A stretch of 64,000 nucleotides of DNA from NCBI RefSeq assembly GCF_045037415.1, contig NZ_CP173438.1; one strand, given 5' to 3'. The position numbers were made by a program, and so were the translations under genes. The notes under the pieces are model-generated. The model saw nothing but the letters and a program-made list of their open reading frames with translations. It did no database searches and had not been told where the DNA came from. Shown piece after piece: positions 18,215 to 30,998 of the stretch. Position 1 is the stretch's first letter. Every line of letters starts with the position of its first letter. The stretch is from Escherichia coli (GTDB lineage: Bacteria; Pseudomonadota; Gammaproteobacteria; Enterobacterales; Enterobacteriaceae).

Positions 18215-18608
18215 CTATTTTGTCTGGTTTTTGGCTTCAAGTAGTTCTTTTAGCAGTAGATCGAAGTGCTCTCTTTTTTCTTTTAGCTCATTGATTAATT
18301 TATTTTTTTCGCTCTCAGGCAGTCCTCTGAATAGTTGCAGTAGAGCCTGTTCTTGCGGGGTTAGTTCTTGATTGTAATTACCCGGGTGTAGTGTGGATTC
18401 ATCCAAATATTCCCCTTCATTCATGAAGAAAAAATGAACAGGGTATCCGGTCACTTTTGCTAGCTTGTCTAATTTATCTTTTCTTGGAGTTACCCCATTA
18501 CACCATGCCTGAACTGATTGAGCCGTAACCCCAATATGGCGAGCTAACTCAGATTGAGAACCAGCCTAAGTCTTTTAGAATCCGTTGTAGTCGGCTAGCA
18601 AAAGCCAT
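18215..18608 (-). pseudogene. CI-type HTH (XRE) repressor interrupted by a 1-nt frameshift
   Basis: ATG at 18608 gives MAFASRLQRILKDLGW and then a TGA. The next frame continues SQSELARHIGVTAQSVQAWCNGVTPRKDKLDKLAKVTGYPVHFFF... into ORF 18215..18454. The span is 394 nt, i.e. 131 codons plus 1. Confidence 0.75.
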
Positions 18609-24774: not shown

Positions 24775-25698
24775 TTATTGGTTTCTGAGGAAAGCGATTC
24801 TTGAAAGGGTCATTTGCGTCTGGCAGTCGACCATTTTCTTGACTTCAGCATCTGTTCCCTGCATTGAAACTTTACCGCACATAGCATCCTTAGTTTTGAT
24901 CCACTGACGCTGAGAAGGCAGCAAATCTTTTTTCTTCGCCGGGGTTAACTTGCTCCAGACGGTACTCAAATCAGAGTCGGCATTCGCAAATGCCATTCGG
25001 GACTGATCAAGGTTGTCAGCTTTTTGCGGCTGAAGTTGTGCCTGTCTCTCTATTTGCTTCTCCGCCTCATACTTAGCCTGTTCTTGCGCCCTGAGTTGCA
25101 CCTGTTGTTCCGCTTCAATTTGACTCTGTTGGGCATCCTTAGCCTGCTGGATTTTCTGCTGCTCAACGATCGGGGTGATAATGGAAAGCGATGTCAGTAA
25201 AGCGGCGCCCACTGATATCGGATTATCAGTAGAGGTTTTTACAAAAACGTTTTTCTGATCGTCGGTCGCCTGCACGGTGTAGGTGATACGTTTTGAAAAG
25301 GCGTTTGCGTTGTTCTCCAAAAACAGGCTTTCCATTTGCTTATCGAGATTACGATTAAAATTCTTTCTGTAAGCATCTGAAAGCTGGACGTACTCGTTCG
25401 CAGATAGAGTCATCGTCACGGTCCCTTCACAAGTTTTCATTGTGCTGCCCGTGTCACTTGATGTTGTGGAGATCTCAGAGATGGCTAGTTTGATCTTGTC
25501 CAGTGTGCTTCGTTTGGTCTGATTAGTGACATCAGGGTATTTATCGACCTGTTCAGAGAGTCCTTCATAAGCAGATTTTTTTAATAAATCCATGAGAGCT
25601 GACTGGGTTATTTCCGAAGAACAACCGATCTCATCTTTTTTGTTATCACAGCCTGTAAGGGCAATGGCGAGTAAGAGTACTGAGTATTTTAATCTCAT
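24775..25698 (-). CDS. lipoprotein with a DUF1311 (LprI-like) C-terminal domain
   Basis: Lipobox LLAIALTGC. Q-rich coiled-coil middle. C-terminal LPSQRQWIKTKDAMCG...C...R pattern typical of DUF1311. Confidence 0.75.
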   Translation of the reverse strand: MRLKYSVLLLAIALTGCDNKKDEIGCSSEITQSALMDLLKKSAYEGLSEQVDKYPDVTNQTKRSTLDKIKLAISEISTTSSDTGSTMKTCEGTVTMTLSANEYVQLSDAYRKNFNRNLDKQMESLFLENNANAFSKRITYTVQATDDQKNVFVKTSTDNPISVGAALLTSLSIITPIVEQQKIQQAKDAQQSQIEAEQQVQLRAQEQAKYEAEKQIERQAQLQPQKADNLDQSRMAFANADSDLSTVWSKLTPAKKKDLLPSQRQWIKTKDAMCGKVSMQGTDAEVKKMVDCQTQMTLSRIAFLRNQ

Positions 25699-26211
25699 GA
25701 ATTCCCTTTAGAGTAAGGATTGGTTTTTAAGACGCGGTCTGTAATCAGTCCCGAGAGCTACAGTAAACAACGCTGAGCACTGAACGCATCACAGGTAAGG
25801 TAAAAGGTGATATCGGCAAAGGCTGTGAAACCTTTAATTCAACAGATGGGAACGGTATGCGCAGGATCCTGTAACGACGCTCCCAAAACCGGAAACCTGT
25901 AAGGCATGTTTTCGCTGCTGAACTTAATATACGAACCTGCACTATCATGAACATATTTTATATCGTTATACCCCGAGTGATTGTGCCCGGCAATGGATAG
26001 TGTCCTGGAGGAACTATTTCTACTGTAAAAGGTAGATATTTAATTTCAGTTTTGAATTATTCCCTGCTGTTAATAACAATGGCTGTATATGGCACCGAGT
26101 AGGCATTTTTTCGCTTACTGAAGGGCAGCTGTGAGCGAGGAACAGACTTTCCCTACTTCGTTGAGAGTACACCTAGTACAATCAAGGCTAAATGATAAAA
26201 ATATACAAAAT

Positions 26212-26242
26212 ATCATATTTATGATATATATAATGGCATTAA
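26212..26242 (+). promoter_or_regulatory. palindrome plus MAL mini-ORF unit, copy 1
   Basis: ATCATA-tt-TATGAT followed by ATGGCATTAA. A near-identical unit occurs at 26798..26836. Confidence 0.3.
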
Positions 26243-26314
26243 TCTTATTCTTGGATTACGTTGAAAGGGTAATATTATATTTGTGTAACATAGTTTAGAT
26301 AACAATGCCGTTAT

Positions 26315-26322
26315 GGGGGGGG
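26315..26322 (+). repeat. homopolymeric G8 tract
   Basis: Eight consecutive G in a very AT-rich stretch, 3 codons after an ATG (26305). Separates two reading frames. Confidence 0.9.
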
Positions 26323-26797
26323 AAAGACATTTCAACATATTAGCTTTGTATCTAACGCTCATGTAGATCTCGATTTTGAACTTAAAGAACAATTATTTTT
26401 TAGAGAGCAAGGTATTTTTGGGGAACAAAAACATAAAGTAATGGAGAGAGGAGAATGTATCAAAAAATCATCGATTTAATTTAGATTGTCCGTATAGTTG
26501 GGGGTAAGTCGAATCGCTGGGCTACATGGAATATTGTGTCAAGTAAAAATATATTTCAATCTTGCAATAACCGATTGTTGAAAATAATGTCAAATCTTAA
26601 TGGTGAATGGGGAGAATATAATAAACATGAGTCGATATTATGCAAATGGATTTAAATATTTTATACCCGAAGACATAGGGTTTCGAGAGTTCGATGAGAC
26701 TACTTTGAATGCTTTCGAATTTGCTGGCTAAAACATATAGGTTATATCTTACATCTGTTTGTAATGGAGCGTAGATGCGACAAGCTACACCATAATA

Positions 26798-26836
26798 ATC
26801 ATATTATGATATATTGTTAAGTTGTTATGGCATTAA
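26798..26836 (+). promoter_or_regulatory. palindrome plus MAL mini-ORF unit, copy 2 (upstream of gene 26886)
   Basis: ATCATA-t-TATGAT followed 12 nt later by ATGGCATTAA. Confidence 0.3.
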
Positions 26837-26885
26837 ATAAAATTATGTCATTTTGTTAACCAAGCAAGAATCAAAGGACTTTTAG

Positions 26886-27584
26886 ATGGGTACGGCATTA
26901 ATTTCAAGCTTTATTAGTGGTGCAATAGCTATAATCTCTATTGCTATATCTACTTATAATCAGAATAGAATAAACAAGCTCAATGAATCACTGGATGTAA
27001 GGAGAAAACATCAGTACTATATTGAACCGTTAATTCGCTCAGCTTCAGACTTACAAAGCCGTATTTATAATATATTAGAATTGGGGTTCATTGAAGAGTT
27101 TTATCATAATGGGAATAAGCGCCAACAAGATTATGTTATCAACAATACTGTTTTTCTTTTTTCCCAGTTTTTTGCATGGACAGAAGCTGCCCGCATAGAC
27201 ATTCAATACCTTAGCCTAGAAAAAAATAAAAAAATGAGGGAGTTTATTAGATTACAGAACAATATTAACTCATTAATCCAAACAGACGTCTTTGGTCAGT
27301 ATTTTATGTTTTTCATAGGAGAGCAGAGAGCTATTGCAGAAAAGATGCTGATATCAACAGATACTGGATTTGATTGCATAGGTTACGGCAGTTTCACAAA
27401 GGAAAATTGCTTTATCAATGAGCCATTTTTTTTAGATTTAAACAATGAAGTGATAAATATGACAAGAGATATCGGAATTTATAAAGAAAGGCTAATCAGA
27501 ATACAGCACGCGTTAATCGATTTAATTAATTTTCTTGATCCTGGCATGATTCGATTTGACGGAAAAAAATATGGAAAAATATAA
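26886..27584 (+). CDS. membrane-anchored protein of unknown function (cargo gene)
   Basis: 232 aa with an AAGGA RBS. N-terminal TM helix ALISSFISGAIAIISIAISTY followed by a helical soluble domain. Very AT-rich. Confidence 0.65.
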   Translation: MGTALISSFISGAIAIISIAISTYNQNRINKLNESLDVRRKHQYYIEPLIRSASDLQSRIYNILELGFIEEFYHNGNKRQQDYVINNTVFLFSQFFAWTEAARIDIQYLSLEKNKKMREFIRLQNNINSLIQTDVFGQYFMFFIGEQRAIAEKMLISTDTGFDCIGYGSFTKENCFINEPFFLDLNNEVINMTRDIGIYKERLIRIQHALIDLINFLDPGMIRFDGKKYGKI

Positions 27585-27769
27585 CCCAGATGATTCGTAT
27601 CAAGGTAAGTTGCTATATGTATCAATTTAATTATGGTTGGGTGAAATTTATGTTAATAGTAGCGGAGGGTTAGTTAAAATATGCTCTCAGTGATTTTTGG
27701 ATAGTTCTTTTATTTATCATTGAAAGTAAATATGTATAGCTTCAAGATTTACAAGTGAATCTGTTTATT

Positions 27770-27801
27770 GACAGTCCGCTTATGGCACAGAGCGGACTGT
27801 C
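27770..27801. terminator. strong hairpin downstream of gene 26886
   Basis: Perfect 11-bp inverted repeat GACAGTCCGCT ... AGCGGACTGTC with a 10-nt loop and AT-rich flanks. Confidence 0.6.
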
Positions 27802-28046
27802 ATATTAAATTTGGCTCCACGCCATAGATGTGTCAGCTCATATCTTATCTAATACACACAATAACTTTCTCATTCTTGGAGAATTATTTTTTTAAGGGTA
27901 GGTGTTGACGTTAGAGCAAAAGAATGGTGATTTTTTTGATGTGTATTACGTTGGAACTGATGGGAATAACTATCTGTTTTCAACGCACTGCTAATTTATC
28001 AAGGCCCTTTGATCAGGGCCTTCGAAAGACTGTTGGACCGAGAGAG

Positions 28047-28652
28047 TTACTTGCGTTTAAAAAGGTATTTTGTCACGACCAGCACGAGGCCGAATACCTC
28101 TGTCAAAGTACCGCCCATGTACAACTGTAGTGTTAAATCCTCAAATTCCAGCTTACCTGCGCCGTCGGCAATAAATACACCATTCATTATCAGAAGTTGG
28201 AAAGCAAGGATAATCAGGAACCATTTCCCGTATCGTTTTTTTAGAGCGATTTCTGCTTCAAAATCTTTGTTGTTGAGTTGTTTGCGCTCATGCTCGGTAT
28301 CAAGTGAATTCACCTGTTTCACAGATGTGAACTCGGTCAAGATTTTACTCTCAGTACGGGTGACTTGTTGAGAGGGTGTAGCAGTTGGAATTCTTTTGCT
28401 AGACGCAGCTACAGCCATTTTGCGAGCTTCGGCAGCTCTTTTTCTGGCTATTCCGCGAATACGGACAGCCGTTTTTTTGGGGGCGTGCGAAACCTTTGGC
28501 TGAGGTGAAGCTTCGTCAGGAGACTGAACCGGAGTTTCATCGTCCTCCGGCTCAACCTCTTCTGCTAACTGACGGTGTAGGTTGAGGGAATCCTTCAGTC
28601 TGCGTGCTACTTCCTGTTTGAAACGGCTGTTAAAATCGTCATCCGATGGCAT
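28047..28652 (-). CDS. two-TM membrane protein with a charged, disordered N-terminal region (candidate effector)
   Basis: 201 aa. Hydrophobic helices WFLIILAFQLLIMNGVFIA and GGTLTEVFGLVLVVTKYLF. Starts 9 nt after the peptidase gene. Confidence 0.7.
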   Translation of the reverse strand: MPSDDDFNSRFKQEVARRLKDSLNLHRQLAEEVEPEDDETPVQSPDEASPQPKVSHAPKKTAVRIRGIARKRAAEARKMAVAASSKRIPTATPSQQVTRTESKILTEFTSVKQVNSLDTEHERKQLNNKDFEAEIALKKRYGKWFLIILAFQLLIMNGVFIADGAGKLEFEDLTLQLYMGGTLTEVFGLVLVVTKYLFKRK

Positions 28653-28661
28653 TTTAAAGCG

Positions 28662-29150
28662 TTACCCCAACCTCAAGTTCTTTAAACGATAAGTCATCGC
28701 ATCGTCAGATACGCCAAAATAATGCGCCATTATATAACTTGGTTGACCGTCAGCGTGCAGTTTTCTGACCTCATCTACCGGCATCAGAAGTTCTGCTGCG
28801 AACTTGTTTGCAAAAATTTCATCAGGATGCGTTCCGGCGCTTGCGGTTTCGCCACGTAAATCAACGTACTCATATTCATCGCTATGCGATGCTTGCCGGG
28901 CGATGTAATGCCCCAACTCATGCCCACATGAAAAACGTTGACGAACTTTGTTGTCATCACTGTTTAGAAAGATCGCTGGATCTTGATCTTTTTGTTTAAT
29001 CAGTGCGCCAGAAACTTTCCCAGGAAGATCGGTAATAAAAACATCTAATCCCATGTCGTGAGCAATTTTCGCTGGATCAACAGGGAAACCACGCCCGCAC
29101 CAGAACGTGTCCAGCACTCGCCGGGCGTGCTCTCTTGGGTTGGTAGCCAT
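28662..29150 (-). CDS. ImmA/IrrE-family (M78) zinc metallopeptidase, stand-alone
   Basis: 162 aa. HExxH in FSCGHELGHYIARQ. GGAGG RBS. No HTH domain or adjacent HTH gene. Confidence 0.8.
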   Translation of the reverse strand: MATNPREHARRVLDTFWCGRGFPVDPAKIAHDMGLDVFITDLPGKVSGALIKQKDQDPAIFLNSDDNKVRQRFSCGHELGHYIARQASHSDEYEYVDLRGETASAGTHPDEIFANKFAAELLMPVDEVRKLHADGQPSYIMAHYFGVSDDAMTYRLKNLRLG

Positions 29151-29548
29151 AGCTCCTCCAGTTACTGCATTACGATTATTGGTTGAAATATAGACAGCAT
29201 GTTCCGTACCACATTCCTGTAAAAGTGCAAATTCTGCACTTCTGGTACGATATTAACTGTTAGTAGTAAAGTCTTCCAGATAAATCACTTTAAAATCTTG
29301 TGAATTGCTTGCTTTTTACGCTGTATTGTGGATGGTTCAATGTTTCCAGTAAAAACATACATGATAATCATGAGTTTAGTGTTTTTTTAGGCGTCTATAT
29401 GTTTCTGGAAAATACAGGTCTAACCTGATCTTATCGTTGAGATTTTTTGTACTCAGTATGCGTGAACGATTCGACCAGGTGACTGTGTACGTGAAGAAGA
29501 CCGCCCTTAATATTTTAAATGTGCAACCCCTCAGAAGAGGGGCTACTC

Positions 29549-29782
29549 TCACTTCTGCAGTATCTCGCCAATACCTGCCAGATTCTCGTCCATCTTGTCA
29601 CCGTTTTCGATAAGGATGGAGTTGAGCCGATTCAGTTGCATAGCAATTTCAAGTTTGATTAAGGTATCCACCGATACACCAGTTTCTTTTGCTAACTTAG
29701 TAAGAGCCGCAGCTCGATTGGCTAAATTAAAATCATCGAACTCATAACGACTTCTGCACGGCTGGTTGCCTAACGTACCCAT
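29549..29782 (-). CDS. hypothetical protein
   Basis: 77-aa ORF with a GAGGAA RBS. Hairpin CCCCTC-agaa-GAGGGG just after the stop. Confidence 0.5.
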   Translation of the reverse strand: MGTLGNQPCRSRYEFDDFNLANRAAALTKLAKETGVSVDTLIKLEIAMQLNRLNSILIENGDKMDENLAGIGEILQK

Positions 29783-30025
29783 AGTGATTCCTCATGATAT
29801 AAAGACCCAACAATATAAATTACCAGGCACATCATAAGATAGGGTTCCAGCCCATATTTTCAAATATTTGCAAGTATCACCGTTCAGTCTAAAAAGTTGG
29901 ATGATGATTTAACGAGCCATAACAAAACCCTGCCTCGGAGGTTTTTTCTTTTTTATAGAACTCAGCGGCGTGAAAACGAATAATAAATTGTGCAAATAGT
30001 GCAGTTTTTATTATTCGAGGTAATT

Positions 30026-30667
30026 ATGAAAACCTTCTATGAGGACTGGCCTGAAACTTTCGTTAGCCGGTTAGATATGTTACGGGCGTTGGATGATCGC
30101 GGTTCGACCCGGAGGCTCTATCTTGAACGGACCGGGGCAATATTTGACGCTCTGGCAGAAGAGATACGTACAGTCGTTGCCGGGCATCCTGAAATCGACG
30201 TGAGTGAACTTGATATCGGGCCGCTGTATCGCTATTACAAACGTGGAGAAAAGGGGAATCCGCTGGCTGACTTACTTATTGAGTTGGCTCCACCAACTTG
30301 TGAACGGGTTCGTATATCTCCTGAAGTGTACATAATCCCGTATCTGTTTTTTGCACTGTTGATAGCGCAAGGCGCTGACAACGATGCCCGCGATTTTTTC
30401 AATATGATGATGCGACCGTTAATCATCGCCTACCGTTTCAAACAACTGGCGCGATACCTGGGAACAAAGGGCGGAGGACGACCACAGCACAGATTAAAAA
30501 GCGAAGCCATTGAACTGGCTGATCGTTTTTTTACTGAAAACCCGACAGCGCCATTATCGCGTGGCGTGCAATACATATCCGGTATTTTTGTGGCGAAATA
30601 CTCTGACCCACCTGCAGCGTCGACGATTAGAAAATGGTTAATTCCAATTTACAGGAGTGATAAATAA
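30026..30667 (+). CDS. hypothetical protein (cargo gene)
   Basis: 213 aa from the ATG with a GAGG RBS. No motif I recognise. Confidence 0.55.
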   Translation: MKTFYEDWPETFVSRLDMLRALDDRGSTRRLYLERTGAIFDALAEEIRTVVAGHPEIDVSELDIGPLYRYYKRGEKGNPLADLLIELAPPTCERVRISPEVYIIPYLFFALLIAQGADNDARDFFNMMMRPLIIAYRFKQLARYLGTKGGGRPQHRLKSEAIELADRFFTENPTAPLSRGVQYISGIFVAKYSDPPAASTIRKWLIPIYRSDK

Positions 30668-30760
30668 TGACCATAAACGGTTTAATCCCCTATAAAACCG
30701 TTTAATAAAATTCACGACGTGAATATAATTGTTCATTATTCCCTCATTGTATTTGGCGTT

Positions 30761-30796
30761 ATGACAAATGCCATAAAATACTGTATAAATATACAG
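30761..30796 (+). promoter_or_regulatory. sigma-70 promoter overlapped by a LexA (SOS) box
   Basis: ATGACA-N17-TATAAA. CTGTATAAATATACAG at 30781..30796 fits CTGT-N8-ACAG and the TACTGTATATATATACAGTA consensus. Confidence 0.6.
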
Positions 30797-30818
30797 GTTG
30801 TGGCATTGGGGGGAAGAC

Positions 30819-30998
30819 ATGAATATTCAAGAATCTATAGGCGAACTACCGGAAACATGCCGGGCTGTTATCAAGCGTAAGGACGGACACATCGTTGGTG
30901 TGCGTGTTCTGACCGATGATGAGCGGATTGCCAGCCTGATGGCGTTTCTCGAGTTGGCAGAAATAGCTGGATATACTATTACACCCCCTGACGCGTAA
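30819..30998 (+). CDS. small SOS-controlled protein (antirepressor candidate)
   Basis: 59 aa. ATG directly after GGGGGGAAGAC. First ORF downstream of the LexA box. Confidence 0.45.
   Translation: MNIQESIGELPETCRAVIKRKDGHIVGVRVLTDDERIASLMAFLELAEIAGYTITPPDA

Follow-up and report, generated by a model that had tools for sequence, protein, structure and literature searches.

The locus considered here raises the question of what a stand-alone peptidase of the ImmA/IrrE type does beside a small membrane protein in an Escherichia coli prophage. It lies in a 64,000-nucleotide (nt) stretch of contig NZ_CP173438.1 (assembly GCF_045037415.1), referred to below as the window, and comprises two minus-strand open reading frames (ORFs) encoding a 162-amino-acid (aa) M78 zinc metallopeptidase (28662-29150) and a 201-aa membrane protein (28047-28652, with the stop codon at 28047-28049 included), separated, as a first-pass annotation of this DNA had reported, by a spacer of 9 nt (28653-28661). 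That annotation had proposed a toxin-antitoxin (TA)-like or abortive-infection module related to RosmerTA, a reading that is supported by the co-occurrence of the two genes and by the homology of both proteins to RmrA and RmrT of Gordonia phage Kita. It had also stated that no described family with this pairing could be named, yet one exists in the Kita pair RmrA(D25)/RmrT(D5), described by Ernits et al. 2023 in PNAS (PMC10440598). The window pair is probably a self-contained, horizontally mobile Rosmer-type TA/abortive-infection module of the subtype without a helix-turn-helix (HTH) domain that the Kita pair represents experimentally; it is an unannotated enterobacterial relative of a known system and no new kind of system.

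In phage Kita, RmrA(D25) and RmrT(D5) correspond to gene products gp32 (YP_009301393.1, Peptidase_M78) and gp33 (YP_009301394.1, transmembrane), respectively (PMC10440598, supplement). Kita RmrT is toxic in E. coli, where it shuts down transcription, translation and replication; its C-terminal region is predicted to localise to the membrane, which is rapidly depolarised and permeabilised, while the peptidase serves as the antitoxin with only partial neutralisation, and E. coli that carries the pair is protected from phages Bas54 and Bas59 (PMC10440598). A tblastn search of 50,697 phage records with the window peptidase returned 30 records, 17 of which are Gordonia phages, and among them Kita gene 32 matches with 44% identity over 93% of the query (E 5e-31); by BLASTP, gp32 and the window peptidase share 43% identity over 157 aa (E 7e-41). 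The Kita genes for gp32 (178 aa) and gp33 (119 aa) overlap by 4 nt and stand in the order peptidase then toxin, as in the window. The core of the window toxin gave no significant tblastn match among deposited phages, and Kita was reached only via the peptidase. A profile of 161 sequences of the toxin family nevertheless matches Kita gp33 over the whole core (43.3 bits, E 1.5e-9 at Z=1e6), and a leave-out profile, from which the 47 members detectable by BLAST from Kita had been removed, still does so at 39.4 bits (E 2.7e-8). The profile match is not circular, since identity to Kita gp33 does not exceed 37% for any member of the family. The motif of the second transmembrane (TM) helix and an invariant glutamate (E185 in the window protein) are common to Kita gp33 and the family. 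Since both genes, their order and their spacing match those of Kita, the window pair corresponds to an experimentally characterised system.

The likeness extends to the general layout of the two systems, each with a stand-alone peptidase lacking an HTH domain, followed with an overlap or a short gap by a toxin with a C-terminal membrane segment, and each carried by a temperate phage. The two peptidases also show the same pattern against the defence-system models of PADLOC v2 (2023), in which the Kita proteins give a CapP match (6.7e-26), a partial RmrA match and no RmrT match. The systems differ in that Kita is a phage of Actinobacteria whereas the window holds an enterobacterial prophage, and in that the window toxin has a disordered insert of ~85 residues and a conserved N-terminal helix in addition to what is found in the 119-aa Kita toxin.

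Several points weigh against this assignment. The identity between the toxin cores of the window and Kita is only about 23-33%, and a narrow profile restricted to Enterobacterales matches Kita gp33 weakly (17.3 bits, with a conditional E of 2.7e-7 and an E of 0.23 at Z=1e6). The window toxin has no match to the PADLOC RmrT models at E<=0.1, but this is a low-power test that also misses the validated Kita toxin, so that the negative reflects a database gap and provides no evidence against membership. For the Kita pair itself, neither a catalytic mutant nor cleavage of the toxin is reported in the literature, and its authors could not predict a complex and found neutralisation to be incomplete (PMC10440598). 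In addition, a literature search with the E. coli accessions found no paper.

Evidence for a functional unit also comes from the distribution of the two genes. A search based on the toxin found 48 homologues, all in Enterobacterales, and a 162-aa PF06114 gene lies directly upstream of the homologue in Klebsiella oxytoca, in Serratia marcescens and in a Rac-like E. coli prophage; two of these sites are beside an integrase gene and an attachment tRNA, and the third follows an antiterminator gene. A search based on the peptidase found homologues with 45-62% identity in Pectobacterium, Silvimonas (Betaproteobacteria), Pseudoalteromonas and Salmonella, each followed at a distance of -1 to 7 nt by a protein of 107-145 aa with a conserved core. 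This shared core consists of a juxtamembrane helix ('D-x-x-A-E/D-x-x-LKK-x-Y/F'), a first TM helix (TM1) with 'QLxxMNxxF' and a second (TM2) with 'LYMxGTLxExFG...YLF'. Of 18 sources (the window and L002-L018), 17 have enough sequence, and each of these carries both genes, spaced by -1 to 11 nt. An exhaustive search with the family profile extended the toxin family to 685 clusters at 50% identity, 183 of them at E<=1e-10, and among the matches listed all proteins are 49-236 aa long with the core at the C-terminus. Two distant members were inspected, of which the first lies in a Mu-like phage and the second in a Firmicute locus that also has spore-germination genes, and in both an overlapping PF06114 gene lies upstream. 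In total, 20 of 20 loci with enough sequence have both genes, with a gap of -8 to +11 nt; they derive from Enterobacterales, Pectobacterium, Pseudoalteromonas, a betaproteobacterium, a Mu-like phage and a Firmicute. The check for co-occurrence suggested by the first-pass annotation thus finds both genes in every such locus, across several phyla. The pairing is not chance.

The settings in which the pair is found are unrelated to one another and include sites next to an integrase gene and attachment tRNA, sites after an antiterminator gene or before lysis genes, islands with primase, AlpA and integrase genes, and a site flanked by insertion sequences (IS). All-against-all clustering of the flanking ORFs from 11 contexts gave only the two genes and their shadow ORFs, and hence no third conserved gene. 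The co-occurrence, together with an unconserved upstream region and the lack of a third gene, indicates that the unit is exactly two genes that are mobile as a cassette. A scan of one genome per species recovered only 3 loci, owing to the narrow peptide patterns used. Natural knock-outs were considered as a test of the antitoxin role and rejected: in E. coli S9, R10 and other strains, IS1 lies downstream of the toxin gene and both genes are intact, while the apparently truncated peptidase P0125 and toxin P0002 derive from assemblies with several homopolymer frameshifts in both genes (Salmonella CP069813, L027; ENA contig_27, L028). The truncated variants are most likely long-read assembly errors, and such database 'pseudogenes' of either gene should not be over-interpreted.

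Related stand-alone M78 peptidases are also encoded by mycobacteriophage Che9c (45% identity; L025 1147-2812) and by the P2-like phage NC_070905 (37%; L026 2489-3665), where they are followed by different small membrane proteins without a match to the family profile. Judged from these sequences, partner swapping would fit the 'one antitoxin, many toxins' pattern described for Rosmer systems. As a separate observation, the Che9c pair directly adjoins a HicAB TA pair, which suggests that this phage has a small cluster of defence/TA genes immediately after its lysis genes.

The peptidase contains the HExxH signature within FSCGHELGHYIARQ. Its assignment to the M78 family, initially made from the HELGH motif by eye, was borne out by the Pfam model PF06114 (Peptidase_M78), which matches over the full domain (profile positions 3-123 of 123, E 7.7e-18, 64.9 bits against a cut-off of 22); a full-length match at this score places the HExxH motif far beyond chance. 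The protein also matches phrog_87 'metallo-protease' (3.9e-30). The residues H77, E78 and H81, like E111 as the predicted third zinc ligand, do not vary among 41 diverse homologues, down to 44% identity. An AlphaFold2 model of the peptidase has a predicted local distance difference test (pLDDT) score of 90, and its closest solved folds are CapP (7t5t) and IrrE/PprI, with CapP and IrrE recovered by sequence as well; in Foldseek, the TM-score against CapP normalised to the target is 0.41. The proposed search against defence models gave matches only for the peptidase, whose best PADLOC match is CapP (2.4e-25, profile positions 3-151 of 242), with RmrA profiles aligning in their peptidase part only (e.g., 166-266 of 363); PADLOC gave no match for the membrane protein. 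The profile alignments cover peptidase portions only, and no HTH domain was found in the protein, as had been noted from the sequence. The 162-aa protein can thus be described as a stand-alone, RmrA-like putative antitoxin without an HTH domain.

Upstream of the peptidase gene, a GGAGG ribosome-binding site (RBS) can be read at 29155-29159 on the minus strand, and an alignment of four loci shows that only GGAGGAGCTATGGCTACCA, which comprises this RBS and the start codon, is shared. The remainder of the ~400 nt upstream is unconserved between loci, and in two of them the attachment-site tRNA is found there. Consistent with the first description, the gap at 29151-29548 holds no credible ORF, and the inverted repeat reported in it is real (AAGTGCA-N5-TGCACTT, 29223-29241), but this palindrome is not conserved in the upstream regions of other loci and is local to this prophage. 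A hidden HTH partner or a regulatory RNA upstream was rejected on account of the unconserved sequence and of the lack of any Rfam match at 27500-30900. Likewise, SOS wiring of the peptidase gene was rejected, as no LexA box precedes it and the sole perfect box in the window (30781-30796) precedes another ORF. The next ORF upstream of the pair (29549-29782, minus strand) encodes a 77-aa protein of phrog_5550 with an HTH-like stretch recognised by eye (LAKETGVSVDTLIKLE), followed by a GC-rich hairpin; it has no Pfam match and is absent from every other pair-carrying locus, which places it outside the conserved unit.

These observations bear on the possibility that the pair serves prophage induction in the manner of ImmA/ImmR, with the peptidase acting as an anti-repressor protease that cleaves the short cI-like repressor of the prophage (130 aa in SK1144, without an S24 self-cleavage domain) and the membrane protein acting as a tether or regulator. 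The window peptidase shares its family and its zinc site of HExxH plus Glu with the ImmA/ImmR (ICEBs1, phi105) and IrrE/DdrO proteases, and its minimal catalytic domain is sized like ImmA; ImmA-family peptidases classically cleave XRE/cI-type repressors, the repressor of this prophage is too short for self-cleavage, and some phage homologues carry the annotation 'antirepressor'. However, these proteases are defined by an adjacent XRE/cI-type repressor substrate, and none is conserved beside the pair, where a comparison of 11 independent contexts showed no recurrent HTH gene. The two genes travel together among unrelated phages, satellite-like islands and a chromosomal IS-flanked site, in which the immunity regions differ or are absent, and the only perfect LexA box of the window precedes a small ORF that could itself be an SOS-controlled antirepressor. 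As the Kita pair moreover works on its own in a heterologous host, both as a TA system and in defence, an anti-repressor role is considered very improbable.

The 201-aa protein, regarded here as a RmrT(D5)-like putative membrane toxin on the basis of the profile match to Kita RmrT, belongs to phrog_5346 of unknown function (E 5e-141) and has no match in Pfam, NCBIfam (release 20) or PADLOC; a sequence search of the toxin family against the PDB also gave no meaningful match. Hydropathy and AlphaFold2 agree with the charged N-terminal part and the two C-terminal hydrophobic helices first recognised in it, and three regions can be distinguished, all encoded on the minus strand. Following the acidic N-terminus, residues 4-32 (28557-28643) form a conserved amphipathic helix, modelled with a pLDDT of about 75-86, in which L19, L23 and R27 are invariant among the Enterobacterales members. 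Residues 33-118 (28299-28556) make up a charged, disordered linker that is variable in length and sequence, as seen from alignment gaps and a pLDDT below 50 (with low confidence over 34-118 in the model), and that is much shorter in most relatives, family members being mostly 100-170 aa long. The conserved core at residues 119-201 (28050-28298), defined by hydropathy, AlphaFold2 and invariant columns, consists of the juxtamembrane helix (DFEAEIALKKRYGKW) and a two-TM hairpin, with TM1 at about 142-166 and TM2 at about 175-193 by hydropathy and modelled helices at 119-164 and 172-198. The Lys/Arg clusters before TM1 and after TM2, together with the acidic loop between them, predict an N-in/C-in topology. 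In TM2, E185 is invariant from actinophage to Firmicute to E. coli. The Shine-Dalgarno sequence of the toxin gene is distant and weak (GGGG at -16 to -13), which, with the tight gap, would fit translational coupling to the peptidase gene. On the other side of the gene, 25 nt after the toxin stop codon, a perfect 8-bp hairpin, AAGGCCCT-gatcaa-AGGGCCTT, can be read at 28001-28022 on the minus strand as a possible terminator with a weak U-tract, although a consensus terminator scan did not pick it up.

This architecture could also be taken to suggest a protease that activates its partner, as in gasdermin-like 'protease-gated effectors'. Here, the N-terminal helix and linker would auto-inhibit the protein until the peptidase, upon sensing a cue such as single-stranded DNA (ssDNA), as CapP and IrrE/PprI do, cuts the tail and frees the pore-forming core. 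A conserved helix joined to the core by a disordered, length-variable linker would indeed offer an accessible cleavage site, yet many family members are nearly tail-less, with a total of 100-120 aa. Similarly, the catalytic site is strictly conserved and the closest folds are the signal-activated proteases CapP and PprI (solved with ssDNA), whereas the window peptidase lacks the C-terminal sensor domain of CapP/IrrE, its match ending at position 151 of the 242-position CapP profile. Finally, the Kita toxin is toxic on its own and its peptidase lowers that toxicity, which is the opposite sign to that expected from activation. The label 'protease-gated' in the first-pass annotation, taken as cleavage of the effector, goes further than the present data and the literature. 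An activating protease is therefore improbable, and the peptidase of the Rosmer-type module is preferably regarded as a restraining partner.

Among described systems, canonical RosmerTA (Millman et al. 2022; vmi480-type; E. coli E101 WP_001179380/WP_000481765; spr1629 family) resembles the window pair in having an M78 zinc-peptidase antitoxin beside a small toxin without known domains, in residing on prophages and in acting in phage defence. Canonical RmrA proteins differ in that they span 360-400 aa and have an XRE HTH at the N-terminus as well as an extension at the C-terminus, while the 162-aa window peptidase corresponds to about 100 central profile positions; the NCBIfam model of the spr1629 antitoxin gives 25 bits against a cut-off of 335, and the fusion that characterises canonical RmrA is lacking. 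The canonical gene order is often toxin first, whereas the peptidase comes first in the window. The clpP-essentiality module of E. coli E101 is a different, canonical Rosmer pair, and no post-2023 mechanistic work on the HTH-less Rosmer subtype was found in the literature. CapP of the CapP/CapH modules, found in cyclic-oligonucleotide-based antiphage signalling systems (CBASS) and other defence operons (Lau et al. 2022; PDB 7t5t), is the best match of the peptidase among both solved structures and PADLOC models. Unlike CapP/CapH, the window peptidase has no CapP C-terminal domain and no CapH HTH partner, the partner being itself the effector, and neither HTH or CBASS-like genes nor a downstream defence operon were found near the pair. 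A further parallel is provided by PanA-PanT (Kurata 2022 / Ernits 2023), in which a small toxin depolarises the membrane through C-terminal TM helices and is countered by an upstream cytoplasmic neutraliser, although the antitoxin fold there is Panacea/DUF4065 and here M78.

Based on these comparisons, a mechanism can be proposed for the Rosmer-type module. The 162-aa peptidase would be made first from the shared transcript and restrain the toxin, a role shown for the Kita antitoxin, while the 201-aa protein is predicted to insert into the inner membrane via its C-terminal helical hairpin with both termini in the cytoplasm. When unrestrained, the toxin may oligomerise into a pore or channel through which membrane potential is lost, in keeping with the depolarisation shown for the Kita homologue. 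This pore would probably be lined by Glu185, which is invariant and embedded in the membrane, together with the polar face of the TM helices. The strict conservation of the zinc site makes it most likely that the peptidase neutralises the toxin by cutting its cytoplasmic part, beyond binding alone, but this proteolytic step is a conjecture. In the lysogen, the module is oriented so that it would be transcribed against the lytic operons. By analogy with Kita and phages Bas54 and Bas59, a particular infecting phage may upset the balance between peptidase and toxin; toxin released in this way would depolarise the cell and cut the infection short, thereby protecting the lysogen population and the prophage.

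A bolder version of this model, which we regard as doubtful, holds that HTH-less Rosmer systems are an ancient, widespread family of their own (685 clusters; Proteobacteria, Firmicutes and actinophages), whose minimal M78 protease cuts its own membrane toxin in the cytoplasmic tail or the juxtamembrane helix, and whose hypervariable tail senses phage proteins or is targeted by them. If true, it would represent a proteolysis-based TA system, with an enzyme as antitoxin that constantly degrades or licenses a pore centred on a conserved glutamate within the membrane. The comparison in any case connects the Kita system with a large family whose core is clear and whose membrane-embedded glutamate is invariant, offering targets for studying how an M78 peptidase neutralises a membrane toxin. 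It also exposes an annotation gap, as PADLOC v2 has no model for the toxin family despite a validated homologue, and NCBIfam release 20 has none that matches the window toxin.

The window holds a prophage integrated in the E. coli chromosome beside a tRNA-Leu gene by pgsA. Its genes are arranged in the order integrase, cI-like repressor, cro-like gene, YdaT, DnaB and an accessory stretch in which the pair sits, followed by DUF1367, DUF1364, Q antiterminator, holins, an endolysin-like gene, terminase and myovirus-type tail genes. The pair is encoded on the minus strand, opposite to the replication and late genes of the prophage. This arrangement bears on the possibility of a lysis-timing or superinfection-exclusion device, in which the two-TM N-in/C-in protein would act like a class II holin or pinholin, or block injection, and the peptidase would tune its level. 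The hairpin is similar to those of class II holins, but holins are not paired with peptidases, and the prophage has holin and endolysin genes of its own at about 32.7-33.9 kb, in a late operon on the other strand. While the pair lies directly upstream of a lysozyme gene in one locus (L020) and between antiterminator and holin genes in Serratia (L005), it is also found far from lysis genes and outside prophages; and although pore formation would account for the toxicity of Kita RmrT too, the Kita pair protects against unrelated coliphages. A role in lysis or exclusion thus seems highly unlikely, and a TA defence module remains the preferred reading.

The 2.4-kb segment with the pair is present in 456 of 5426 complete E. 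coli genomes (~8%), in all of them on the chromosome. A probable function as a membrane-depolarising TA defence module can be given to a gene pair described as 'hypothetical / ImmA-family' in about 8% of complete E. coli genomes. The pair is part of a mosaic accessory island, together with a cassette common to the P2 Z/fun hotspot, and its neighbours are unrelated cargo, namely an ORF6N-domain protein, an LprI-family lipoprotein and a 232-aa gene on the cassette. The lipoprotein (24775-25698, minus strand, as the pair) is a prophage cargo protein of 307 aa whose C-terminal domain is of the LprI (lysozyme inhibitor) type and which also has a coiled segment rich in Gln and Glu. The cassette spans ~1.7 kb at ~26120-27870, is flanked by inverted repeats and shows ~89% DNA identity to the ORF1 cassette in the Z region of phage P2-EC58. 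Its 232-aa gene (26886-27584, plus strand; phrog_5606) encodes a protein with an N-terminal TM segment, 91% identity to the P2-EC58 counterpart and a weak PADLOC match to RTasTM (1.8e-5), and it may represent single-gene defence or lysogenic-conversion cargo common to lambdoid and P2-like prophages. In the non-coding part of the cassette upstream of this gene, a poly-G tract at 26315-26322 reads G8 in the window and G9 in SK1144, which could reflect phase variation or a homopolymer error. In E. coli S9, R10, R13, AVS0193 and AR_451, the segment matches in two pieces, with an IS1 transposase annotated under the match; in S9, the only one inspected, IS1 lies between the cassette and the toxin gene (L019 1965-2662, equivalent to ~27.9-28.0 kb of the window), and both module genes are intact.

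Two further observations concern the immunity region and the SOS response of the prophage. Relative to the gene for the 130-aa repressor of SK1144, the cI-like gene (about 18215-18608, minus strand) carries one extra nucleotide at ~18560, at about codon 16, by which its HTH region is frameshifted; this copy could be a real pseudogene with defective immunity or a sequencing error. The sole perfect LexA box of the window (CTGTATAAATATACAG) lies directly 5' of a 59-aa ORF (30819-30998, plus strand; WP_001025459, hypothetical), which may encode a small antirepressor under SOS control; the repressor of this prophage lacks a self-cleavage domain.

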